DNA of 64,000 nucleotides from an uncultured Candidatus Rokubacteria bacterium (lineage in GTDB: Bacteria; Methylomirabilota; Methylomirabilia; Rokubacteriales; DASRDR01): positions 832,001 to 896,000 of the forward strand of contig CAWGVS010000006.1 in assembly GCA_963826115.1 (NCBI GenBank), read 5' to 3'. Numbering within the stretch: the stretch's first letter is position 1; the number at the start of each line of letters is the position of its first letter. The notes under the pieces were generated by a model. It ran no database searches. It had not been told where the DNA came from and worked only from the letters and a program-made list of their open reading frames with translations. Shown in pieces: positions 1,147-12,453 of the stretch. The translations under genes were made by a program, and so were the position numbers.

Positions 1147-1602
1147 ATGCTTCCGGCTGACGTCTTTCGCGCCAACACCCCTCACGTGGTTCACGAGATC
1201 ATCGACGGCGAGGCGATCCTCGTGAACATGCAGACCGGCCGGTACTACAGCGCGAGCGAGATCGGCGCCGTCGTCTGGGGCCTGGTCGAGGCGGGCGCGC
1301 CGGTGAGCGCGATCGTGGACCGCGTGGCGGCCCGGTACCGGGGCACGCGCGGGGAGATCGCGGCGGGGCTCGAGAGCTTCCTCGCGGAGCTCGAGCGTGA
1401 GGGTCTGATCGTGCCGCACGAGGGCCCCGTCGCCGTCCGTGATGGCGCCGGCGACGGGCGCGAGATCTCGCCGGCCGGGGCGCCGTTCGTTCCGCCCGCG
1501 CTCCGCGCGTACACGGACATGGAAGATCTGCTGCTCCTCGATCCCATCCACGACGTGGACGAGACCGGCTGGCCCAACCGCGCCAAGGACCGCACCGACT
1601 GA
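1147..1602 (+). CDS. PqqD-family/RiPP recognition element (RRE) protein with fused C-terminal peptide
   Basis: N-terminal PqqD pattern (VVHEIIDGEAILVNMQTGRYYS...IGAVVWGLV...LESFLAELEREGLI), a linker, then FVPPALRAYTDMEDLLLLDPIHDVDETGWP. Confidence 0.85.
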   Translation: MLPADVFRANTPHVVHEIIDGEAILVNMQTGRYYSASEIGAVVWGLVEAGAPVSAIVDRVAARYRGTRGEIAAGLESFLAELEREGLIVPHEGPVAVRDGAGDGREISPAGAPFVPPALRAYTDMEDLLLLDPIHDVDETGWPNRAKDRTD

Positions 1603-1628: not shown

Positions 1629-2693
1629 GTGACGTCCGAAGACGGGATGCGCCCGGCGCCGCTGGCCTTCTTCGACGCGACGCGCCGCGCGTTCCTCGAC
1701 GCCGAGCGGGCCGCGGGCGGCGCGACCCACCGCTTCGTCGATGTCGCGGGCCAGACCGTCCGGCTGAGCTTCGCGGGCCCCGCGCTGATCTCGCGCCTCC
1801 TGCCGGCCCTGTCGCACGCCGAGGCGCCGCAGATCGCCACCCCGGCCCTCACGGTGTGCGCGTGGGACGGCGCCTCCACCGGGGTCGCGCTGCCCCGTCT
1901 CTCCTGGGAGGGCGCGTCCCTGTCCCGGCGTGGCGAGGTGCAGGGGTTCAACGATCGCCGGATCCGGATCGCCTTCGACCGGGCCTCGGACCTCCTGAGC
2001 TGCTTCGATGCCGACCGTCGCCTCGCGCTGTTCTGCACGCCGTCGGCCGACTCCGTCCCGATGCACGAGACGGCCACGCCGCTCACGGCGATACTCTCCT
2101 GGTGGCTGCGCTCGCGCGGCCTCGAGTTCGTCCACGCCGGCGCGGTCTCGTGGGCGGGGCGCGCTGCCCTGCTCACCGGCGACAGCGGAGCGGGCAAGAC
2201 GACCAGCGCCCTCGCGTGTCTCGCGTCGTCGCTGGGCTATCTGGGCGACGACACCTGCGCGGTCGAGGCCGGGCGCGCGCCCCGCGTGTTCGGCCTCTAC
2301 AACACCGCCAAGCTCACCCCGGACTGCGTCGAGCGGCTGCCACACCTGCGCGAGGCCGTGAGCAACCCGGGCCGGCTCGATCGGGAGAAGGCGGTGGTGT
2401 TCCTCGGCGAGGGTCAGCGCGCGCGGCTCGAGCGGAGCTGCCCGGTCGAGGCCATCGTGCTGCCGCGGGTCACCGCCCGTGTCACGCCGGTTCTGAGGCC
2501 CGCGTCGCCCTCGGCCGCCGCCCGGGCGCTCGGCCTGGGGAGCGCCCTCCGGTTCGCGGGGGTGGACGAGGACGGTCTCCGCAACCTCGTGCGGCTCTGC
2601 CACACGGTGCCGTGCTACGAGCTCCAGCTGGGCTCGGATCTCGCGCGGGTCCCCGAGCTGATCCGGCGCCTGCTGGCGCGGGAGGCGCCGTGA
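1629..2693 (+). CDS. HPr kinase/phosphorylase-related P-loop kinase
   Basis: VHAGAV...LLTGDSGAGKTT (Walker A) followed by YLGDD, the HprK signature order; start could also be ATG 1647. Confidence 0.85.
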   Translation: MTSEDGMRPAPLAFFDATRRAFLDAERAAGGATHRFVDVAGQTVRLSFAGPALISRLLPALSHAEAPQIATPALTVCAWDGASTGVALPRLSWEGASLSRRGEVQGFNDRRIRIAFDRASDLLSCFDADRRLALFCTPSADSVPMHETATPLTAILSWWLRSRGLEFVHAGAVSWAGRAALLTGDSGAGKTTSALACLASSLGYLGDDTCAVEAGRAPRVFGLYNTAKLTPDCVERLPHLREAVSNPGRLDREKAVVFLGEGQRARLERSCPVEAIVLPRVTARVTPVLRPASPSAAARALGLGSALRFAGVDEDGLRNLVRLCHTVPCYELQLGSDLARVPELIRRLLAREAP

Positions 2694-3895
2694 GGATCGC
2701 GATCCTCACGCCCTACTCGCCGTATCCGCCGAACTCCGGCGGCCGGATCCGCATGTGGGAGCAGATCCGGTATCTCGCGCCGCGCCACCAGGTCACGCTG
2801 GTGTCCTTCTACGAGGAAGAGGAGGAGGACGACGCCCGGCGCGCCCGGCTCGAGGAGCACTGCCGGCGGGTCTTCCTGGTGAAGCGCCCGCGCCGCCCCG
2901 CCCACGACGACCTGGCGCGGCTCAACGGGGTCGCCGACCTCTTCCGCTGGCACACGACGCCGGAGATGGCGGCGGCGCTGAAGCGCTGCCGGAGCGAGTC
3001 GTTCGACGTGACGATGATCCACCACGTCTTCATGGCGCAGTACCGGGAGGCGCTCTCCGGGCCCGTCGTGCTCCAGGAGCACAACATCGAGTCGAACATC
3101 TTCGGCCAGCTGGCGCGCCTCGACGTGAACGGGGGGGACGAGGCGGCGCGCGGGCGCCTGCGGACGTTCCGCCGCTCGCGCTGGATGCTGATGCGGCAGT
3201 ACGAGGACCGCGCCTGGCCGGGCTTCCCGCTCCGCTTCGTGGTGAGCGAGGAGGACAAGCGCGAGCTGGACCGTCGGTGCCCGACCGGGCGCACGGTGGT
3301 TTCCGAGAACGGGGTGAACACGCGCGAGATCCGGCTCCAGCCCCTGTCGGCCGCCCGCCGCGTGCTGTTCATGGGGTCGCTCGACTTCTATCCGAACATC
3401 GACGCGCTGATGCACTTCCGCGACGCGGTCCTGCCCCGCCTGTGGCGGAAGGATCCGGACGTGTCGGTCGTCGTGGCGGGGAGGAACCCCGACGAGGCGG
3501 TCCGGGCGCTCGCGATGGACCCGAGGATCACGGTCGTCGCCGATCCGGCCGACATCGCCCCGCTGGCCCGCGAGTGCGGTGTGACCGTGGTACCGCAGCG
3601 CGTGGGCGGGGGGACGCGCATGCGGATCCTCCACGCCATGGCCCTCGGGCTCCCGGTGGTCTCGACGAGCCGCGGGTGCGAGGGGCTCGCCGTCACCGAC
3701 GGCCAGGACATCCTGGTCCGCGACGACCCCGACGCCATGGTCGACGCCGTGCTGGAGCTTCTCGGGAGCCCGGCCCTGGCGGCGCGCCTTCACGCGGCGG
3801 GGCGCGCCCTCGTGGAGGCGCGCTACGACTGGCCCCGGGTGATGGCGAGCATGGAGGAGGAGCTCCTCGCCGTGGCGGGCGCGCGGGTGGGCTGA
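2690..3895 (+). CDS. Glycosyltransferase family 4 (GT-B)
   Basis: GTG start overlaps the kinase stop (GTGA); PYPPNSGGRIR, FMGSLDFYPNIDA, GGGTRMRILHAMALGLPVVSTSRGCEGL. Confidence 0.9.
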   Translation: MRIAILTPYSPYPPNSGGRIRMWEQIRYLAPRHQVTLVSFYEEEEEDDARRARLEEHCRRVFLVKRPRRPAHDDLARLNGVADLFRWHTTPEMAAALKRCRSESFDVTMIHHVFMAQYREALSGPVVLQEHNIESNIFGQLARLDVNGGDEAARGRLRTFRRSRWMLMRQYEDRAWPGFPLRFVVSEEDKRELDRRCPTGRTVVSENGVNTREIRLQPLSAARRVLFMGSLDFYPNIDALMHFRDAVLPRLWRKDPDVSVVVAGRNPDEAVRALAMDPRITVVADPADIAPLARECGVTVVPQRVGGGTRMRILHAMALGLPVVSTSRGCEGLAVTDGQDILVRDDPDAMVDAVLELLGSPALAARLHAAGRALVEARYDWPRVMASMEEELLAVAGARVG

Positions 3896-4641
3896 TGGAA
3901 CCGGTCAGGCCGCGGAGCGCCGGCGGGAGCCCGCTGGTCAGCGTCGTCATTCCCGCCTACAACGGGGCCGAGTTCCTGGGGAAGGCGGTGGACAGCGTCC
4001 TCCGGCAGGCGTGGGAGCCGATCGAGATCCTTGTGATCGACGACGGCTCGACCGACGACACGGCCGCCATCGCGCGGAGCTTCGGCGACGCCGTGCGATA
4101 CGAAGCTCAGCCGCGCCGGGGATGTCCGGCGGCCGGGCGGAACCGGGGCATCCGGCTGTCGCGCGGGTCGCTCGTCGCCTTCCTGGATCAGGACGACCTC
4201 TGGCCGCCCGGCGCGCTCCGATGCCGGATCTCGGCCTTTGGCGCCAGCCCGCCGCCGGATGTCGTGATCGGTCGCACGCAGATCCTGCATCACGACCGGG
4301 AGCCGGGCGGCCGAGGCCCGGGGGCGCTCGGCCTCGTGCTGCCGAACCACATGGTGTCGGCGGCCCTGTTCACGCGGGAGGCGCTCGCCGCCGTCGGGCC
4401 GTTCGACGAGACGCTGCGCTACTTCGGCGACGACCTCGACTGGTTCATCCGGGCCCGGGACCTCGGCATCCGGACGCTGGCCCTCGACGTGGTCACGCTG
4501 CACTGGCGGCGGCACGACCGGAACGCGAGCGACCGCGGCATCCGCGACCACGCGGCGGGGCGGGACCACGCGCTGACCGAGGTCGTGAAGCGGACGCTGG
4601 ACCGGCGCCGTCGGGCCGCGTCGCCGGGCGGCGATGGCTGA
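3895..4641 (+). CDS. Glycosyltransferase family 2 (GT-A)
   Basis: TGATG overlap; VSVVIPAYN, VIDDGSTD, AFLDQDD (DxD), PFDETLRYFGDD. Confidence 0.9.
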   Translation: MEPVRPRSAGGSPLVSVVIPAYNGAEFLGKAVDSVLRQAWEPIEILVIDDGSTDDTAAIARSFGDAVRYEAQPRRGCPAAGRNRGIRLSRGSLVAFLDQDDLWPPGALRCRISAFGASPPPDVVIGRTQILHHDREPGGRGPGALGLVLPNHMVSAALFTREALAAVGPFDETLRYFGDDLDWFIRARDLGIRTLALDVVTLHWRRHDRNASDRGIRDHAAGRDHALTEVVKRTLDRRRRAASPGGDG

Positions 4642-5806
4642 GCCCGCGCCGGCGCCGATCGTGGCCGCGGACGGCCCTGCGGCCCGCGACGGCCGGGGCG
4701 TGCTCGTGATCGACACGCGGTATCCGACGCCGGACCGTGACGCCGCGTCGCTCCGGATGATGAACGTGCTGGCGCTCCTCCGGGAGGTCGCCGGGCCCGT
4801 GACCTTCGCGGCCGACGACGCCGGCGCGCATCGCTCCTCCCGGGCGCTGCTTCGGGCCGCCGGGATCCGCGTGGTGGATGACGTCTCCGTGGAGGCGCAC
4901 CTCCGCGCGCGCGGGCGCGACTACCGGATCGTCGTGCTGAGCCGCGTCGACACGGCCACGAAGTATTTGCCCCTCGTACGCCAGCACGCCCCGGACGCCC
5001 GGCTCGTCTTCGACACGACGGATCTCGCGTCGGTGCGGGGTCTCCGCGGCGCGAGGGTGACCGGCAATCAGAACCTGCTCCGCCAGGCCCTCGTGGCCCG
5101 ACGGGAGGAGCGGGCCGCGGCCTCGGCCGCCGACTGCACCCTGGTCGTCAGCGCGGAGGAGCAGGCGACGCTGATGGCCGACTGCCCGGGCGCCCGGGTT
5201 CACGTGCTGTCGGTTGTCCACGCGCTGCCCGAGTACCGTCCCTCGCGCGCCGGGCGTGAGGGCCTCGTGTTCGTGGGCGCCTTCCCGCACCATCCGAACG
5301 CGGACGCGATGGAGTTCTTTCTCCGCGAGGTGCATCCGAGGCTCCGCGAGAGGCTCCCTGGAGTTCAGACCCTCATCGTCGGGACGGAGCCGCCCGAGTG
5401 GCTTCGGCAGCGAGCCGGCCCGGACATCGTCGTCGCGGGACACGTGCCGGACATCGGGACGGCTCTCGGGCGGCGACGGGTGTCGATCGCGCCGCTGCGC
5501 TACGGCGCGGGCGTCAAGGGCAAGGTCATCCTCAGCATGAGTCACGGGGTCCCCGTCGTCGGGTCCACGATCTCGGCCGAGGGGATCGGGGCGCGGGACG
5601 GGGAGGAGATGCTGATCGCCGATGCGCCGGACGAGCTCGTGGCCAAGATCGCCCTGGCGTACGAGGACGAGGCGGTGTGGCACCGCCTCTCCGCCAACGG
5701 CCGACGCCTGGTCGACCGGGAGTTCTCGCTCGACGCCGGGCGCCGGAGCGTCCGCGAGCTCCTCGCGCTCCTGGGCGTGGCGACCAACTCGGTTCCCGTG
5801 GAATGA
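4634..5806 (+). CDS. Glycosyltransferase family 4 (GT-B)
   Basis: PTPDRDAASLR, FVGAFPHHPNADA, APLRYGAGVKGKV, GVPVVGSTISAEG; overlaps upstream stop by 8 nt. Confidence 0.9.
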   Translation: MAEPAPAPIVAADGPAARDGRGVLVIDTRYPTPDRDAASLRMMNVLALLREVAGPVTFAADDAGAHRSSRALLRAAGIRVVDDVSVEAHLRARGRDYRIVVLSRVDTATKYLPLVRQHAPDARLVFDTTDLASVRGLRGARVTGNQNLLRQALVARREERAAASAADCTLVVSAEEQATLMADCPGARVHVLSVVHALPEYRPSRAGREGLVFVGAFPHHPNADAMEFFLREVHPRLRERLPGVQTLIVGTEPPEWLRQRAGPDIVVAGHVPDIGTALGRRRVSIAPLRYGAGVKGKVILSMSHGVPVVGSTISAEGIGARDGEEMLIADAPDELVAKIALAYEDEAVWHRLSANGRRLVDREFSLDAGRRSVRELLALLGVATNSVPVE

Positions 5807-6510
5807 CGGGGGCCGGGGTGGGGACTGCCGGGCTGGTCAGCGTCGTCGTGCCGGTCTTCGACGGGGCCCGGTTCCTGGCGGAGGCGGTGGAGAGCGTCCG
5901 CGCGCAAACGTACGCGCCGGTCGAGATCCTCGTGGTCGACGACGGCTCGACGGACGGGACGGCCGAAGTGGCCGGGCGCCTTCCGGGGATTCGCTATGCC
6001 TGGCAGGAGCACGCGGGGATCGGGGCGGCACGGAACCGGGGCGTCGCGATGGCGCGTGGCGAGGTGCTCGCCTTCCTGGACGCGGACGACGTGTGGCTGC
6101 CGGACAAGCTCACGCGTCAGATGGCGATCCTGCGCGAGGCCCCGGACGTGGACATCGTGTTCGGTCATGTCGAGGAGTTCGTCGACCGCGCGCCGGGCGT
6201 CGAGGAGGAGGGAAGGCACGGGCCTGCCGCGAGGCCCGTCCGCGGAATCATTCCGTCGGCGATGGCGGTGCGGCGCGAGTCCTTCGACCGGGTCGGGCCC
6301 TTCGAGACCCACTGGCGGGTCGGCGAGTTCGCCAGCTGGCTGCTCCGCGCCGGCGAGGCGGGACTGGCGATCCGGGTCCCGCCGGACGTCGTCGCGCGGC
6401 GGCGCGTCCACGGGGAGAACCACGGCATCCGGCAGCGCGAGGCGCTGCAGGACTACGCGCGGATCCTCAAGCAGTCCCTCGACCGGCGACGGGCGGGCGG
6501 AGCCGGCTAG
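5803..6510 (+). CDS. Glycosyltransferase family 2 (GT-A)
   Basis: ATGA overlap; VSVVVPVFD, VVDDGSTD, AARNRG, AFLDADD. Confidence 0.9.
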   Translation: MTGAGVGTAGLVSVVVPVFDGARFLAEAVESVRAQTYAPVEILVVDDGSTDGTAEVAGRLPGIRYAWQEHAGIGAARNRGVAMARGEVLAFLDADDVWLPDKLTRQMAILREAPDVDIVFGHVEEFVDRAPGVEEEGRHGPAARPVRGIIPSAMAVRRESFDRVGPFETHWRVGEFASWLLRAGEAGLAIRVPPDVVARRRVHGENHGIRQREALQDYARILKQSLDRRRAGGAG

Positions 6511-6512
6511 AC

Positions 6513-7256
6513 ATGCCGACGGTGGCCGTGATCGTGCCGACCTACCGGCGGGAGCGCTTCCTGAACCTGGCGGTCGCGTCGCTCCTGGCCCAGACCTTCG
6601 CCGACTGGGAAGCGCTGATCGTCGACGGGACCCCCGAGGGGTCGACCCTCGAGTCCTCGGACCCGCGGCTCCGGTACTTCCGGGAGAGCGAGCACGGCGT
6701 GTCCGGCCTGGCCCAGGCCCGGAACTTCGGCATCGCGCAGAGCGACGCCAAGTACGTCGCCTACCTCGACGACGACGAGTGTTACTACCCGACGAAGCTC
6801 GAGGTCATGGTCGATGTCCTCGAGCGGGAGGCGGCCGGGGTCGAGTTCGCCTACCACGACGTCACCGTCGCGGCCGTGGAGTGGGTCGACGGGAGGCTCG
6901 GCCGCATCGGCGAGCCGCGCCGGCACCGGCATCCGGAGGGCGACCCGAACGAGGCGATCCGGACGACGTCCTTCATCGCCGGCCTCCAGGTCGTCCACAC
7001 CCGGAGCGTGTTCGACAAGGCGGGGGGATTCCGCGAGGAGCGGCTGCGCGGCATCTTCCAGGGGCGGTACCGGAGCCGGCTCGTTCGCTACGACGAGGAC
7101 GCGGACCTGTTCCGGCGCATCGCCCGACACACGCGGCTCCGCCGCGTGCCTATCGAGCTGGGAGAGTACCGGGTTCACGGCTCGAACGCGAACGGCTGGG
7201 GGATCGACTACGAAGAGGTCCTCCGCGCGCGGCAGCTCACTAGGGACGAGTACTGA
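6513..7256 (+). CDS. Glycosyltransferase family 2 (GT-A), divergent
   Basis: ATG 2 nt after upstream stop; VAVIVPTY, AQARNFGI, YVAYLDDD. Confidence 0.85.
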   Translation: MPTVAVIVPTYRRERFLNLAVASLLAQTFADWEALIVDGTPEGSTLESSDPRLRYFRESEHGVSGLAQARNFGIAQSDAKYVAYLDDDECYYPTKLEVMVDVLEREAAGVEFAYHDVTVAAVEWVDGRLGRIGEPRRHRHPEGDPNEAIRTTSFIAGLQVVHTRSVFDKAGGFREERLRGIFQGRYRSRLVRYDEDADLFRRIARHTRLRRVPIELGEYRVHGSNANGWGIDYEEVLRARQLTRDEY

Positions 7257-7277: not shown

Positions 7278-8186
7278 TCAATCGGTCCGGAGCCAGCCGG
7301 ACAGGTCGCGTCCGATGAGGTCCTGGAGCTTCAGGATGTCCTCGCGGTAGACGCCGACCAGGCGCGCTCGCGCGCCGGGGGGAAGCCGCGCCGAACCCTC
7401 GTTCGCGCTCAGCAGGGACCGCACGACTCGCCGGCGCATCGAGAGCGGGACGAGCGGCCGCACGATCGACTTGAGCGCGTTCGGCCGGCTCAGAAACCGC
7501 TGGAGCCCGGCGCTCCGAGGCGGCGCCGAGGGATTGAAGCGCCGGGCCGTATCGACGACGACGCGGCTGTCGACGCCGAGGAACTCGAAGACGTCGCGGA
7601 CGACTCCCGGCGTGTTGTCCGCCAGATCCTCGTGAAGGAAGAGGCGGATCCGGCTCCGGTCGAAGACACGGAAGTAGCGCTCGAGCTGGCGATGGTAGAA
7701 CCCAGCGGCGACGTACCGCCAGAGCCAGTCCCAGCGCTCGCGGGCCCGCTTCTCCTCCTCGGCCAGAGCCCGGGTGAAGTCGGGGATCGGCTCCCGGCCC
7801 GACCGGATCAGGTGCCGGAAGCTCGCGTAGGCGCGCTCACTGGGATCGCGGAGGATCGCGACGAGCCGGGCGCCGGGGATAGCGTCGCGGATGCGTCGCG
7901 GGGCGTCCTCGCTCAGGAGGTACCAGGCCGACGCCTCGCCGACCGCGCGGTGCTCCGGGCCCGCGCCGGCGAACAGCGCCCGGTACGCGTCGGGGTCCGC
8001 GGTCATGCCGGCCGTGGCGGCGCCGTCGCCCGGCCCGCGGAAGTCGACGCGCTCGCCCTCGAGGGCGAAGAAAGCCGGCTCCTTCACGGGGCTCATGAAG
8101 ATCTGCGGGTGGCCGCGCAGGTACTCGTAGAGCGAGGTGGTGCCGCTGCTCATGGCGCCGATGACGAGGAAGTTCGGCAGCGTCAT
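7278..8186 (-). CDS. PAPS-dependent sulfotransferase
   Basis: LPNFLVIGAMSSGTTSL (5'-PSB loop, usual Lys replaced), KEPAFF, GEASAWY, ILRDPSERAYASF (3'-PB). Confidence 0.88.
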   Translation of the reverse strand: MTLPNFLVIGAMSSGTTSLYEYLRGHPQIFMSPVKEPAFFALEGERVDFRGPGDGAATAGMTADPDAYRALFAGAGPEHRAVGEASAWYLLSEDAPRRIRDAIPGARLVAILRDPSERAYASFRHLIRSGREPIPDFTRALAEEEKRARERWDWLWRYVAAGFYHRQLERYFRVFDRSRIRLFLHEDLADNTPGVVRDVFEFLGVDSRVVVDTARRFNPSAPPRSAGLQRFLSRPNALKSIVRPLVPLSMRRRVVRSLLSANEGSARLPPGARARLVGVYREDILKLQDLIGRDLSGWLRTD

Positions 8187-8283: not shown

Positions 8284-9387
8284 TCAGCGGATGCTGAAGA
8301 GCGGCGTGAGCGCCTTCTCGTCCACCGTGATCCCGAGGCCGGGGCGCCGCGACACCTCCGCCCAGCCGTCCTTCGGCTCGGGCGTGCCCTCGGCGATGCG
8401 CTCGTTGACGAGCATGTTGATCAGCATGCCGTTCAGGAGCGACTTCGCGGGCGTGCTGGCGGCGAGGTGGGCCATCGCCGCGGTGACGATGTCACCGCCT
8501 CCCGAGTCCTCCATGGTCACCGAGAGGCCCCACTGACGGCAGACGTCGCGGGCGAGCCGGATCCGGCTGATGCCGCCGAAGCGCGACAGCTTGAGCATCG
8601 CGCAGTCCATCGCGCGCGCCGACTGGGCGGTGAACAGGGCGTCGAGGTCGGTCAGCGTCTCGTCGAGGATCATCGGCCGCGCGGTGCGGCGGCGAATCGC
8701 GAGACACTCCTCGAGGGTGCGGCACGGCTGCTCGAGGTAGATCGGCTCGTCCTCGAGCGCGGCGATGAACTGGGCGGCCTCGTGCTGCTTCCAGTAGGCG
8801 TTGGCGTCGCAGATCACCACCTCCTGGTCGCGCAGGACGTCGAGGCACGCGCGCGCGCGCTTGACGTCCTCCTGCCAGTGCCCGCTGCCCACCTTCACCT
8901 GGAAGCGGCGGAAGCCCTGCTTGAGGAGCGCCTCGGCGTGGGCGCGCATCTTCTCCGGCCGATCCACGCCCACGACGTTGTAGAGGGGGAACCGCGGCTG
9001 GACCGTTCCCCCGAGGAGATCGCTGATCGGGAGACCGGTCGCCTGACCCAGGATGTCCCAGCAGGCGATGTCGATCGGCGACTTGGCGTAGGCGTGGCCG
9101 TACAGGACGGAGTCCATTCGCGCGTAGACGTCCTCGACCTGCCGCGGGTCCGCACCGATCAGGGCCGGCCCCATGAGCTGGATGCCGGCCCGCGCGCCCT
9201 CGGCGAACGCCAGCATGTAGGTCGGGCTGAACGGGCACTCCTCGCCCCAGCCCACCAGCCCCGCGTCGGTCGTGATCTTGACCAGCGTGGCGTGCTCGGC
9301 GCTCACCGTGCGGCCGCCGGACAGCGTCAGCGTGCCGCCGGGGATGGTGTAGTCGAAGCCGAAGACATCGATGCGCGCGATCTTCAC
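8284..9387 (-). CDS. Mandelate racemase/muconate lactonizing enzyme family protein (hydroxyproline-betaine epimerase / cis-3-hydroxyproline dehydratase-like)
   Basis: GWGE, FQVKVG, CDAN, LEQP, LDE metal ligands, LKLSRFGG. Confidence 0.88.
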   Translation of the reverse strand: MKIARIDVFGFDYTIPGGTLTLSGGRTVSAEHATLVKITTDAGLVGWGEECPFSPTYMLAFAEGARAGIQLMGPALIGADPRQVEDVYARMDSVLYGHAYAKSPIDIACWDILGQATGLPISDLLGGTVQPRFPLYNVVGVDRPEKMRAHAEALLKQGFRRFQVKVGSGHWQEDVKRARACLDVLRDQEVVICDANAYWKQHEAAQFIAALEDEPIYLEQPCRTLEECLAIRRRTARPMILDETLTDLDALFTAQSARAMDCAMLKLSRFGGISRIRLARDVCRQWGLSVTMEDSGGGDIVTAAMAHLAASTPAKSLLNGMLINMLVNERIAEGTPEPKDGWAEVSRRPGLGITVDEKALTPLFSIR

Positions 9388-9525: not shown

Positions 9526-9996
9526 TCAGGCCGCCCGATCGCCTTCGGACGCCTGGCGCTCCGGCGAACCGAGAATCGGCACCGCGCTCCGGACCGCCGC
9601 GTGGAGAAGGTCGAGGTCGAAGGGCTTCATGAAGGTCGCGACGACCCCGTGCTCGGCTGCCACCTCCTCGACCGGGCGCCCGGCGTACTCCTCGGCGCCG
9701 GTCATGACGATGACGGGCACGTCGGGATAGAGGCGGCGGAGCGCGCGGACCAGCCCGAAGCCGTCGAGGCGCGGCATCTCGACGTCCGTCACCACGACGT
9801 CCGGCACCCACGCCTCCGCCAGGGCGAGCGCTTCCTGGCCGTCCCCGGCAGCCAGGACTCGAAGCGAATCCTCGGCGAGGGACTCCCGGCAGAGCTCCCG
9901 GATGACCCGCTCGTTGTCCACGAGGAGCACGACGGGCGCGAAATCGAGGGACGAGCCACTGCGGACTGGAGACGTCCGCGGGACTGGCGGAGTCAT
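9526..9996 (-). CDS. Single-domain response regulator (receiver)
   Basis: VLLVDN, VVTDVEMPRLDG, IVMTG, FMKPFD; GAGGAGG RBS upstream. Confidence 0.85.
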   Translation of the reverse strand: MTPPVPRTSPVRSGSSLDFAPVVLLVDNERVIRELCRESLAEDSLRVLAAGDGQEALALAEAWVPDVVVTDVEMPRLDGFGLVRALRRLYPDVPVIVMTGAEEYAGRPVEEVAAEHGVVATFMKPFDLDLLHAAVRSAVPILGSPERQASEGDRAA

Positions 9997-10606: not shown

Positions 10607-11056
10607 TCACCACGCCGGAGGACAGGCGAGATGCCAGCGGGCGCTCTCGCGAACCACGACGGGGTCCTCGGCCAGGAGCGGACCCTCGCAGTACCCGCAG
10701 CGAGGGCCCGGCATCGACTGGACGCCGAGGGCCGTGAAGTACGCCCCGAGATGCGTCGCCCTGTCGACGAGCCGGCCCCGGAGGAGCGCCTCCAGCGCCG
10801 AGCGGAGGAGGTTCCGCACCCGGGTTCGGGCCACCGGGTCGCCGAGGGCGCGCTCCAGCGGCCGCCGGGGGAGAAGGACCGACGTCGACATCTCACGCGG
10901 CGCGTGGAGACTGATCGCGTACCGGTCCTCGGGGGCGAGGAGTGTGCACTCCAGGATGTCGGCCCGTCCACGGAGCTCCCGCAGGAGCGTCACGACCAGG
11001 AACAGGAGTGGCGCGGGATCGACGATGGAGCCGCGGGGCGACGATAGCGCGCTCAT
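10607..11056 (-). CDS. Hypothetical protein with C-terminal C-x2-C-x18-H-x2-C zinc finger
   Basis: AAGGAGG RBS; ends CGYCEGPLLAEDPVVVRESARWHLACPPAW. Confidence 0.6.
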   Translation of the reverse strand: MSALSSPRGSIVDPAPLLFLVVTLLRELRGRADILECTLLAPEDRYAISLHAPREMSTSVLLPRRPLERALGDPVARTRVRNLLRSALEALLRGRLVDRATHLGAYFTALGVQSMPGPRCGYCEGPLLAEDPVVVRESARWHLACPPAW

Positions 11057-11091
11057 GGGTCACGGTCCCTCCTTGCGCACGCGCTGCTCGG

Positions 11092-11107
11092 TGCAAGCTT
11101 CACGCCG
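11092..11107 (-). promoter_or_regulatory. Candidate sigma54 -24/-12 promoter for the small-gene cluster
   Basis: Minus strand CGGCGT-GAAGC-TTGCA, correct GG-N10-GC spacing, just upstream of the RBS of 11056. Confidence 0.5.
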
Positions 11108-11292
11108 CGGTCGTGCCGATGACGTGGGAGCATCACCGGCGATTGGGACGCACACGGAGCCGCGTCGAAGGCGACGGCGAGCGGGCTGGGGCCGCGCGAA
11201 ATCACGGCGGCCCGTCGTCATCCTGTCGCCGCGGCGTCACCCTGACGGCGCGCCACCCGGCGCAGGGAGACCTCCACGTCGCGCGGCGGGCC

Positions 11293-11308
11293 TGGCAACG
11301 CCCTTGCT
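11293..11308 (+). promoter_or_regulatory. Candidate sigma54 -24/-12 promoter for topoisomerase IB
   Basis: TGGCAA-CGCCC-TTGCT, 14 nt before ATG 11323. Confidence 0.5.
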
Positions 11309-11322
11309 CCTGGATCGCCACC

Positions 11323-12453
11323 ATGAAGGACGCCCCGGCCTCCGGATCCCTCGCGGCTGCGGAAGCGGCGTCGCTCCGGTACGTGAGCGACGGCGTCCCC
11401 GGGATCGCGCGCGTCCGGACCAGGCGGGGGTTCCGCTATCGGGCGCCCGACGGGACGCCGGTCCGCGACCTCGCGGCGCGCCGCCGGATCCGGGCCCTCG
11501 CGATCCCCCCAGCGTGGACGGAGGTCTGGATCTGCCCCTCGGCCCAAGGGCACATCCAGGCGGTGGGCCGGGACGCCCGGGGGCGGAAGCAGTACCGCTA
11601 CCACCCGCGCTGGCGGGAAACGCGGGACGCGACCAAGTACGGTCGCCTCCTTCTGTTCGCCGAGCGGCTGCCGGCCATCCGGCGGCGGGTTGCCGCGGAC
11701 CTCGCCCGGCCCGGGCTGCCTCGCGAGAAGGTTCTGGCGACGGTGGTGCGTCTCCTCGAGACATCCCTGATTCGCGTCGGCAACGCCGAGTACACGACAG
11801 CGAACGGCTCGTACGGCCTCACGACCCTCAGGAACCGGCACGTCCGGGTCGCCGGGGCGACCCTCCGCTTCGAGTTCCGCGGCAAGGGGGGCAAGCCGCA
11901 CGTCGTGGACGTGGCCGATCGGCGCCTGGCTCGGATCGTCCGGCAGTGCCAGGAGCTGCCCGGGCACGAGCTCTTCCAGTACGTGGACGGTGACGGCCAG
12001 ACGCACACCATCGCGTCGGGCGACGTGAATGCCTACCTCCGCGAGATCGGGGGGGAGGAGTTCACCGCCAAGGACTTCCGCACGTGGGCGGGCACGGTCC
12101 TGGCCGCGCGCGCGCTCCGGGATGAGGGGGCGGTCCCTGCGCGGGCCGCGATGCGGAAGGTCGCGGAAGCCATCCGGGCGGTGGCGACGCGACTCGGCAA
12201 CACGGCGACAGTGTGTCGCCGGTGCTACGTCCACCCCGGCGTCATCGAGGCCTATCTCGGGGGGACGCTCGGCCGGCCCGCCCGGGGCGCGAACCCCCGT
12301 GGTCTCGACGTGGACGAGCGCGCCGTCCTTCCACTCTTGCGGGCCTGCGCGCGCGGGGAGGCCAGGAACGGGGTCGGAGCTTCTCGGGTCGCTCGTCCGG
12401 TGTCGACGTCCTTGGCGGCGACAGAGGCTGGTAGAGGACGTCCCGGCTCCTGA
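11323..12453 (+). CDS. DNA topoisomerase IB (bacterial, poxvirus-like)
   Basis: LRYVSD, IPPAWTEVWI, GRKQYRYH, IRVGNAEY, YGLTTLR, FRGKGGK, FTAKDFRTW, LGNTATVCRRCYVHP (catalytic R-K-R-N-Y). Confidence 0.93.
   Translation: MKDAPASGSLAAAEAASLRYVSDGVPGIARVRTRRGFRYRAPDGTPVRDLAARRRIRALAIPPAWTEVWICPSAQGHIQAVGRDARGRKQYRYHPRWRETRDATKYGRLLLFAERLPAIRRRVAADLARPGLPREKVLATVVRLLETSLIRVGNAEYTTANGSYGLTTLRNRHVRVAGATLRFEFRGKGGKPHVVDVADRRLARIVRQCQELPGHELFQYVDGDGQTHTIASGDVNAYLREIGGEEFTAKDFRTWAGTVLAARALRDEGAVPARAAMRKVAEAIRAVATRLGNTATVCRRCYVHPGVIEAYLGGTLGRPARGANPRGLDVDERAVLPLLRACARGEARNGVGASRVARPVSTSLAATEAGRGRPGS

Follow-up and report, generated by a model that had tools for sequence, protein, structure and literature searches.

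Why should a domain built to recognise leader peptides carry a leader-like motif of its own, followed by a tail that hardly changes across a whole protein family? The question is raised by a gene at positions 1147 to 1602 (forward strand) of the 64,000-nucleotide stretch analysed here, called the window below, which covers positions 832,001 to 896,000 of contig CAWGVS010000006.1 (C6) from an uncultured Candidatus Rokubacteria bacterium (GCA_963826115.1). The encoded protein of 151 residues joins a PqqD domain, which is a recognition element (RRE) for peptides that are synthesized ribosomally and modified post-translationally (RiPPs), to a variable linker, a leader-like motif and a near-invariant tail. 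In our study, the protein is read, with a probability of roughly one half, as an acceptor or handle that presents itself for phospho-glycosylation and is related to the tailoring modules of the LPP and paeninodin systems.

A leader-like motif and a conserved tail on one RRE

The open reading frame (ORF) begins with ATG at 1147, downstream of a GGGAGA Shine-Dalgarno-like box noticed by eye, and its coordinates include the stop codon. Residues 22-88 (1210-1410) match the Pfam family PF05402 with E 3.4e-13 and 50.1 bits, passing the gathering threshold of 23.4, and the predicted fold extends over residues 5-92. The linker (residues 93-113, 1423-1485) is delimited by entropy and by the predicted local distance difference test (pLDDT), and 12 of its 21 residues are Gly, Ala or Pro. 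It is followed by FVPPALRAYTDMEDLLLLDPIHDVDETGWP and then by eight variable residues; in the numbering of the protein this is F114-VPPALRAYTDMEDLLLLDPIHDVDETGW-P143, with eight residues left to the C-terminus. Three parts can be told apart here, namely the built-in motif F114-x-x-P117-x-L119-x-x-Y122 (1486-1512), recognised by conservation and in the structure model, the near-invariant tail T123-DMEDLLLLDPIHDVDETGW-P143 (1513-1575), recognised by conservation, and a short hydrophilic end of residues 144-151 (1576-1599), variable by its entropy. The PqqD-like domain, the Gly/Ala/Pro linker and the FxxPxL tail named in the original prediction for this gene are all present.

The domain is an RRE, as had been proposed, and of the lasso B1 type. 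Its top NCBIfam matches are two lasso PqqD chaperone models, both under cut-off (NF033536, 46 against 80; NF033530, 28.9 against 70), and a profile of 150 family proteins (alignment A2, defined below) finds among PDB sequences TbiB1 (E 1.2e-18), PbaB1 of paeninodin type (7e-15), TfuB1 (9e-8) and LppB (9x8z, 1.5e-6). The AlphaFold2 model, computed from a 150-row alignment with a mean pLDDT of 83, has strands at 14-19, 22-27 and 32-36 and helices at 38-48, 53-63 and 68-84, with pLDDT of 94-97 in this winged-helix RRE fold. It superposes on leader-bound TbiB1 with Z 13.3 and a root-mean-square deviation of 1.2 Å over 84 residues at 31% identity, and on TfuB1 with Z 11.5. The most conserved domain residues, G31, Y33, Y34 and S35, lie on strand beta3, which in RREs is the strand that pairs with leader peptides (PMC7470986). 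The fold, the G-x-Y-Y/F beta3 strand and the aromatic-xx-P-x-L motif are shared with TbiB1 (5v1u/5v1v) and TfuB1 (6jx3). In those complexes the leader has a gene of its own and forms a chain of its own, whereas here it belongs to the same polypeptide, about 25 residues past helix 3.

In the model the motif is placed on the domain that precedes it, which agrees with the cis arrangement that had been expected. The mean pLDDT per ten residues along the chain is 87, 95, 94, 95, 95, 94, 95, 97, 97, 73, 62, 95, 65, 55, 53 and 47; the block 111-120 (FVPPALR) thus reaches 95 between flanking blocks of 62 and 65, and residues 119-122 form a strand. FxxPxL(xxY) is therefore predicted to sit on its own RRE domain in cis, presumably in the beta3/alpha3 pocket. 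From residue 123 on the confidence is low, except for a one-turn helix at 125-128, and in the modelled monomer the tail beyond the motif appears floppy and unpacked. Lasso and LPP RREs are known to recognise [Y/W]xxPx[L/V/I/F/A] (PMC13381572).

Proteins with several modules agree with the reading of the motif as a cis leader, since it follows most of their RRE modules. P0121 and P0134 have two such modules, P0123 has three, and P0273 (783 residues, from a metagenome) has three fused to the HprK-like kinase, its three PqqD stretches being confirmed by Pfam. By eye, 8 of the 10 modules in these four proteins are trailed by aromatic-xx-P/A-x-aliphatic or a near variant. One DPIH...GWP end is found in each of P0121, P0123 and P0273, and the last module of P0134 has a DPPL variant. 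The full DPIH..GWP tail of P0273 is internal, on the first module, so that a C-terminal position is dispensable.

Conservation was measured on alignment A2, which holds 150 of 267 family proteins, long and multi-module ones being left out; a further alignment (A1) holds 39 sequences chosen for spread out of 120 listed relatives. Mean column entropy in A2 is 1.03 bits for residues 114-143, 2.19 bits for the PqqD domain, 3.39 bits for residues 89-113 of the linker and 3.33 bits for the last eight residues. By this measure the tail is the best conserved part of the 151-residue protein, and the conservation among homologues on which the original prediction had staked itself is borne out. A lasso-type recognition motif does open the tail: F occupies position 114 in 137 of the 150 sequences and is replaced there by Y in 8 and by W in 4, P117 is kept in 97% and L119 in 92%. 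After the motif the consensus reads DMxDLLLLDPIHxVDExGWP. D132 and P133 are the sole invariant tail residues (150/150), W142 is kept in 149 and H135 in 148 sequences, G141 in 98% and D124 in 97%, and P143 and the Leu run are likewise nearly invariant. The few tail positions that vary are 126, 127, 136 and 138-140. Rare exceptions in a wider set include one Cys-Pro in place of Asp-Pro and the replacement of the His by Asp or Leu. All four tail features, written as regular expressions (aromatic-xx-P/A-x-aliphatic, DM..DP, DP[IVL]H and GWP), were found in 249 of the 264 family proteins of 120-240 residues. The number of residues after GWP ranges from 2 to 18, with a median of 8, in the 146 GWP-bearing sequences of A2. 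At position 122 the 150 sequences have Y (124), F (22) or H (4); at position 123, 109 of them have T and 14 have S, and at position 140 a T or S is present in 96. At one locus (L061) the tail end is duplicated, with two GWP motifs about 10 residues apart. The tail alone gave no match among PDB sequences at E<=10.

Two details of the original prediction do not fit these data. The acidic stretch LLLLDPIHDVDETGWP, taken for a core peptide, is not a typical variable core, being instead the most invariant stretch of the protein. A Thr at position -2 had also been claimed. T123 lies four residues past L119, does not fit the spacing of the penultimate Thr in lasso leaders, and is replaceable, as only 123 of the 150 sequences have T or S there. 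Moreover, the penultimate-Thr rule belongs to the B2 peptidase (PMC10368454), and a peptidase that would read such a Thr is absent, the sole Transglut_core3 of the genome being about 717 kb away.

That distant match belongs to a canonical lasso cluster on the same contig (C6:113153-115672), with Asn_synthase at C6:113153, Transglut_core3 at C6:115054 and PqqD at C6:115445. Its lasso B1 protein stops right after helix 3 and has no tail. No other Transglut_core3 (PF13471) was found in the genome, the PF00733 match nearest to the window is at C6:409622, and Pfam finds neither a lasso cyclase nor a B2 peptidase among the window operon genes. The protein might be supposed to be an ordinary lasso B1 chaperone with an incidental C-terminal extension, as lasso B1 proteins are its best matches in sequence and structure. 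This identity is contradicted by scores under both NCBIfam lasso PqqD cut-offs, by the lack of lasso machinery in the window of a genome whose lasso cluster has its own tail-less B1, and by an extension that is the best conserved part of the protein, and it is considered highly improbable.

Family, cassette and partner kinase

The family is large, and the arrangement is not a chance one. From 5.8 billion proteins, a word-indexed search drew 647 candidates of similar length (83-265 residues), of which 389 match at E<=0.001; the 120 listed relatives cover 88-100% of the query, and the closest homologues among the matches listed have 89-90% identity (E 1e-83). HMMER on 1.84 billion representatives at 50% identity returned 5347 clusters at E<=0.001, 2362 at E<=1e-10 and 36 at E<=1e-30. 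ESM Atlas matches fall solely in unnamed or 'PqqD family' clusters. A scan of species genomes, one genome per species, gave at least 595 pattern stretches. At least 536 of these passed confirmation, and the best 80 serve as the loci of this study. Their hosts belong to Anaerolineae and other Chloroflexota, Acidobacteriota, Nitrospirota, Cyanobacteria, Ignavibacteriota, Thermodesulfobacteriota and other former delta-proteobacteria, Gammaproteobacteria, Bacteroidota, Clostridia, Gemmatimonadales, Verrucomicrobia, Lentisphaerae, Planctomycetota (Anammoxibacter), Spirochaetia, Bipolaricaulota, Dadabacteria, Binatia and Gaiellales.

The fusion of RRE and tail is almost always obligate. In six-frame translation, exactly one DP[IV]H...GWP motif is present per locus in 80 of 80 loci. 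Only 5 tail matches shorter than 83 residues were found among the 5.8 billion proteins; at least 2 of them start inside helix 3 and are visibly truncated full-length genes, and P0271 (64 residues), with a Met start inside the linker, might be a real split form. As for longer fused forms, only P0121 and P0273 were found, which is weak evidence of absence. A clustering of 825 small ORFs (25-79 residues, outside larger ORFs, roughly -5 to +8 kb) from the 80 loci detected no conserved candidate for a separate precursor in more than 3 loci, and those 3 are close Oscillatoria relatives; shorter or very variable peptides would be missed by this search.

These results bear on the possibility that the built-in FxxPxL is an autoinhibitory pseudo-leader, which would block the cleft until a separate and still unrecognised precursor displaces it, the protein then being a chaperone with a regulatory tail. 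Short variable RiPP precursors can indeed escape an ORF clustering of this size range (25-79 residues, about 5 kb upstream and 8 kb downstream), and leader binding is promiscuous in the lasso B1 proteins of other phyla (PMC13381572). Against it, the only recurrent small ORF is confined to the three Oscillatoria relatives, the fusion is retained in essentially all members, and regulation alone would not call for another 20 near-invariant residues past the motif. Such a role is regarded as distinctly unlikely.

In the window, the PqqD-tail gene heads a seven-gene operon with a kinase, three GT2 and two GT4 glycosyltransferases, and a sulfotransferase gene lies alongside. When the window neighbours were searched with tblastn, the kinase was found in 67 of the 80 loci, on the same strand in 66 of these 67, at a median gap of 95 nucleotides downstream. 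An unbiased ORF clustering added two families that are absent from the window, PF14907 (NTP_transf_5) and an ATP-binding cassette (ABC) exporter with ABC_membrane and ABC_tran domains; no other family was present in more than 11 of the 80 loci. Because crude ORF calling fails in high-GC loci, the census was made with profile hidden Markov models on six-frame translations of those 42 of the 80 loci that are flanked by 3 kb or more upstream and by 8 kb or more downstream. GT2 enzymes were found in 41 of these 42 loci, with a mean of 3.3 copies, the kinase in 37, PF14907 in 34 and the ABC exporter in 22; all four components occur together in 19 loci, and a single locus (L033) has none. The most constant partner of the tail is hence the GT2 and not the kinase. 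The usual gene order is PqqD-tail, kinase, two to three GT2s, exporter and PF14907. Kinase and GT2 are fused in 10 of the 80 loci, and a tree of 203 GT2 domains contains one supported orthogroup (0.95) with 66 sequences from 62 loci. Accessory genes vary, with GT4 in 7 loci, the sulfotransferase in 4, and NAD-epimerase, GlcNAc-2-epimerase-like and TPR-GT2 genes in few.

The 6.2-Mb genome itself contains five such cassettes, which are located on C6 (the window), on C1 at about 44.5 kb (L096), on C9 at about 31.3 kb (L097) and on C12 at about 797 kb (L098) and about 369 kb (L099). A kinase and GT2s adjoin all five tail-bearing copies, and PF14907 is present in the C1 and C9 cassettes. The five paralogous tails keep the frame and differ at positions before Asp-Pro; the C9 copy ends in ...DPPL... 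with neither the His nor GWP, and L099 encodes a tandem two-RRE protein with a more degenerate motif, W-x4-P-x-I. As the lasso B1 of this genome is tail-less and the five tails are linked to kinase and GT2 genes, the tail tracks the kinase/GT2 cassettes and not the lasso machinery.

The partner kinase (1629-2693) has no Pfam match and scores far under every curated kinase family (HprK_rel_A, 34.1 against 200; HprK-related kinase B, 27.7 against 200; TIGR00679, 15.5 against 240). Alignment A3 comprises 42 sequences, that is the window protein and 41 of 43 locus ORFs of 320-420 residues, L044 and L053 being left out as near-duplicate Oscillatoria sequences, and in it H63, P151, H169, G184, G187, G189, K190, D207, D208 and K254 are invariant. 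The A3 profile matches HPr kinase/phosphorylase (HPrK/P, 1jb1) with E 2.5e-6; H169, the P-loop G184-K190 (G-x-x-G-x-G-K-S/T in both) and D207-D208 align to the catalytic His, the Walker A motif and the Asp-Asp pair of HPrK/P. The AlphaFold2 model (pLDDT 93) resembles ATP-dependent phosphoenolpyruvate carboxykinase (PEPCK) over about 305 residues (9-354, Z 17-18), and HPrK/P over residues 163-354 only (Z 14, root-mean-square deviation 2.5-3.1 Å), as the N-terminal lobe is PEPCK-like and unlike the N-domain of HPrK/P. According to the model, the kinase is a compact two-lobed phosphotransferase of PEPCK fold with HPrK-type catalytic residues, and in view of both it is very probably active. The N-terminal lobe has invariant residues of its own (H63, W79/D80, S83, D127, W136, E147 and P151), and the arrangement suggests a substrate cleft between the lobes. 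The predicted complex of the kinase with the PqqD-tail protein scored 0.15 and 0.14 against a mark of 0.32, which speaks neither for nor against binding.

Possible roles as acceptor, docking handle or scaffold

Among known systems, the closest are the linear polyphosphorylated peptide (LPP) clusters found in Bacillota (LppA/K/B/S/D/N; Popov et al., Nat Commun 2026, PMC13381572) and the paeninodin/pseudomycoidin clusters (PadeK/PsmK, PsmN; Zyubko et al. 2019, PMC6993621). In both, a discrete lasso-type RRE delivers the precursor and an HprK-like kinase polyphosphorylates one Ser (PMC13381572; PMC6993621). LppK and PsmK thus act on RRE-delivered peptides, PsmN (PF14907) is needed for the addition of hexoses to the phosphorylated peptide, and an MsbA-like pump exports the product (PMC13381572; PMC6993621). 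LPP resembles the window cassette in having an HprK-like kinase beside a discrete lasso-type RRE, glycosyltransferases around them and no lasso cyclase. LPP has a separate precursor of 35-200 residues with an N-terminal leader (YxxPxVLxHQxIxFETxxS), a variable C-terminus and a Ser acceptor, together with an SpI-type leader peptidase, and it is said to be restricted to Bacillota, whereas the present family spans many phyla. Its RRE-binding motif is [Y/W]xxPx[V/L], while here the first residue is mostly Phe (137/150) and the motif is fused C-terminal to the RRE. Unlike LPP, GT2s are integral to the present cassette (41/42 loci, with 10 kinase-GT2 fusions), and the invariant tail has no universal Ser. 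The paeninodin/pseudomycoidin clusters have the same tailoring pair of kinase and PF14907 and an ABC exporter, but they also have three parts that are absent here, namely a lasso cyclase, the B2 peptidase and a separately encoded precursor that bears a C-terminal Ser.

The original prediction referred to RRE-precursor fusions in genome-mining surveys; none was found in the available text of the RRE-Finder papers. According to these papers, 21% of PF05402-only proteins are larger than a discrete RRE and have no further annotation, and the present family would belong to that class. In the accessible full-text literature, neither a natural fusion of RRE and leader nor this tail was found to be described; supplementary RRE trees and novel-cluster figures might bear on the question. 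As far as the literature was searched, the feature is apparently an undescribed variant of RRE-dependent peptide phospho-glycosylation systems. Two arrangements offer partial parallels. In NHLP/Nif11 precursors, a folded domain that is not an RRE replaces the free leader peptide, and in engineered leader-enzyme fusions a man-made tethered leader renders the enzymes constitutively active.

In the reading preferred here, the protein's own FxxPxL(xxY), tethered by the variable linker, would fill the leader cleft of a lasso-B1-type domain in cis. The bound motif would anchor the chain and expose DMxDLLLLDPIHxVDExGWP with its short variable end, so that the PqqD-tail protein would replace the separate precursor of the LPP and paeninodin systems. 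The kinase and the glycosyltransferases would then see the tail and furnish it with a decoration that contains phosphate and/or sugar, or else the tail would be a handle on which this decoration is assembled. Most simply, the RRE protein would be its own precursor or carrier; the role of the tail as an acceptor is inferred.

Several observations weigh against this reading. The tail has no universal hydroxyl residue in A2. In 27 of the 59 kinase-bearing loci there is no Ser at 123, at 136-140 or after GWP, and locus L010 has neither Ser nor Thr at any of these positions. Position 123 is A, D, N or Q in 4 of the 59, and no correlation was seen between a hydroxyl there and the presence of the kinase (S/T in 55 of 59 loci with a kinase and 5 of 6 without). 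Within the genome, the L098 paralogue has no S, T or Y from the leader motif on, yet it is accompanied by a kinase and four GT2s. Judging from the alignments, the attachment residue cannot be a universally conserved Ser or Thr. LppK takes Ser only (PMC13381572); if the same holds for the window kinase, it does not act on the tail. Five of the 42 well-flanked cassettes have no kinase and yet the same tail; L054 and L066 (both Ignavibacteria), L002 and L037 were seen with an unchanged tail, three to five GT2s and no kinase within 10 kb. Near the window operon both PF14907 and the exporter, present in 34 and 22 of the 42 related loci and in contrast to LPP, are absent, and none of the 12 genomic PF14907 matches is on contig C6. 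No conserved peptidase was found in the cassette, S26/S24 models not having been run on the loci, and a Pfam scan of 9 window proteins detected no peptidase domain; for this reason the cassette offers no explanation for an exported peptide product. Finally, most RiPP cores are not conserved to such an extreme degree, and this conservation would fit a docking motif equally well. The lack of a universal Ser or Thr, and the kinase-free cassettes with the same tail, lead either to a chemistry on Asp, His or Trp or to a docking handle or scaffold.

The latter would mean that the fused RRE and leader form a hard-wired activator, permanently 'leader-bound', whose tail, a short linear docking motif, recruits or activates the kinase and GT2s while these act on a glycan, a lipid-linked intermediate or another protein. 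A RiPP tailoring module would thus have been taken over for glycoconjugate synthesis. This is the main, though tentative, alternative, for which much of the above can be counted: the tail surpasses the domain in conservation (1.03 against 2.19 bits), lacks a Ser, Thr or Tyr common to all sequences and is unchanged in kinase-less cassettes; GT2 (41/42) rather than the kinase is the most constant partner; and the accessory enzymes (GT4, sulfotransferase, epimerases) vary while the tail is fixed. Likewise, multi-module proteins with two or three RRE-leader units have at most one full tail, an MsbA-like exporter would fit a lipid or glycolipid cargo, and the LPP clusters are embedded in capsular polysaccharide loci (PMC13381572). 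The cassette nevertheless has no conserved gene for another substrate, as no other family exceeds 11 of the 80 loci, and its GT2s are short and soluble, with no membrane domain in Pfam. Peptides delivered by an RRE are the substrates of the known relatives of the kinase and PF14907, and the docking between tail and enzymes is putative.

A chemistry that is not O-linked to Ser or Thr can also be envisaged, though its realisation here is doubtful. Its reactive centre would be Asp132-Pro133, framed by His135 and Gly-Trp-Pro, where the PEPCK-fold kinase or the GT2s would either act on the Asp carboxylate or trigger scission of the Asp-Pro bond. The outcome would be a new C-terminal Asp ester-linked to a GT2-built glycan, or the release for export of a conserved peptide of about 19 residues that starts with Pro-Ile-His. 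Analogies are known from the heavy chains of inter-alpha-inhibitor, with Asp-Pro-His cleavage and ester chemistry, and from mucins, with GDPH autocleavage. If true, this would be a system of protein-glycan coupling or of signal peptides new to bacteria and present in thousands of genomes.

The window operon and the significance of the family

The window operon is a reduced copy of the widespread cassette, whose other versions combine the RRE protein and the kinase with 2-4 GT2s and often with a PF14907 nucleotidyltransferase and an MsbA-like ABC exporter. Its HprK-like P-loop phosphotransferase of 354 residues (1629-2693, forward strand) is annotated from a GTG at 1629, with an ATG at 1647. 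On the same strand follow the accessory glycosyltransferase GT4 a (2690-3895; Pfam Glyco_trans_1_4, 2.2e-22), with 195 bits against a cut-off of 316 for TIGR03087 and homologues in 7 of the 80 loci, then GT2 a (3895-4641; Glycos_transf_2, 2.3e-29), which falls in an unsupported clade (0.0) of 60 sequences from 48 loci, and the accessory GT4 b (4634-5806; Glyco_trans_1_4, 1.7e-21). GT2 b (5803-6510; Glycos_transf_2, 7.7e-33) is in the supported 0.95 orthogroup, and GT2 c (6513-7256; Glycos_transf_2, 3.5e-20) is outside the assigned GT2 clades. The sulfotransferase gene (7278-8186, reverse strand; Sulfotransfer_3, 1e-11) is convergent to the operon. Its homologues lie inside the cassette and on the same strand in 4 of the 80 loci (L030, L032, L034 and L078), and it is a possible accessory tailoring enzyme. 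The GC content of the window is 72%.

Upstream, a divergent ORF on the reverse strand (3-1178) runs past the window start and looks amidohydrolase-like by eye, with no Pfam match at E<=0.001 in the 295 residues scanned; its listed GTG start at 1178 overlaps the PqqD gene, and the true start is probably further in. Downstream, an enolase-superfamily gene (8284-9387, reverse strand), whose best match is cis-3-hydroxy-L-proline dehydratase (NF043002, 383 bits against a cut-off of 500), is probably unrelated to the cassette. It is followed by genes for a stand-alone response-regulator receiver protein (9526-9996, reverse strand) and a bacterial type IB DNA topoisomerase (10942-12453, forward strand; Topoisom_I and Top1B_N_bact).

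This study has highlighted a very large family (5347 clusters at E<=0.001) in which the usual rule of an RRE plus a separate precursor gene is broken. Most new ribosomal-peptide pathways are discovered by way of their RREs, and the welding of the recognition motif to the RRE explains why these 'orphan' clusters of kinases and glycosyltransferases never show a precursor. The signature [FYW]xxPxL...DPIH...GWP can be used for the genome mining of such clusters. If the tail is a docking handle, it shows that RiPP tailoring modules can be rewired for glycoconjugate synthesis. If the tail is an acceptor, the family would represent a protein phospho-glycosylation system that is widespread and multi-copy, with five copies in this genome alone, and whose chemistry is not accounted for by known examples because no conserved Ser or Thr is available.

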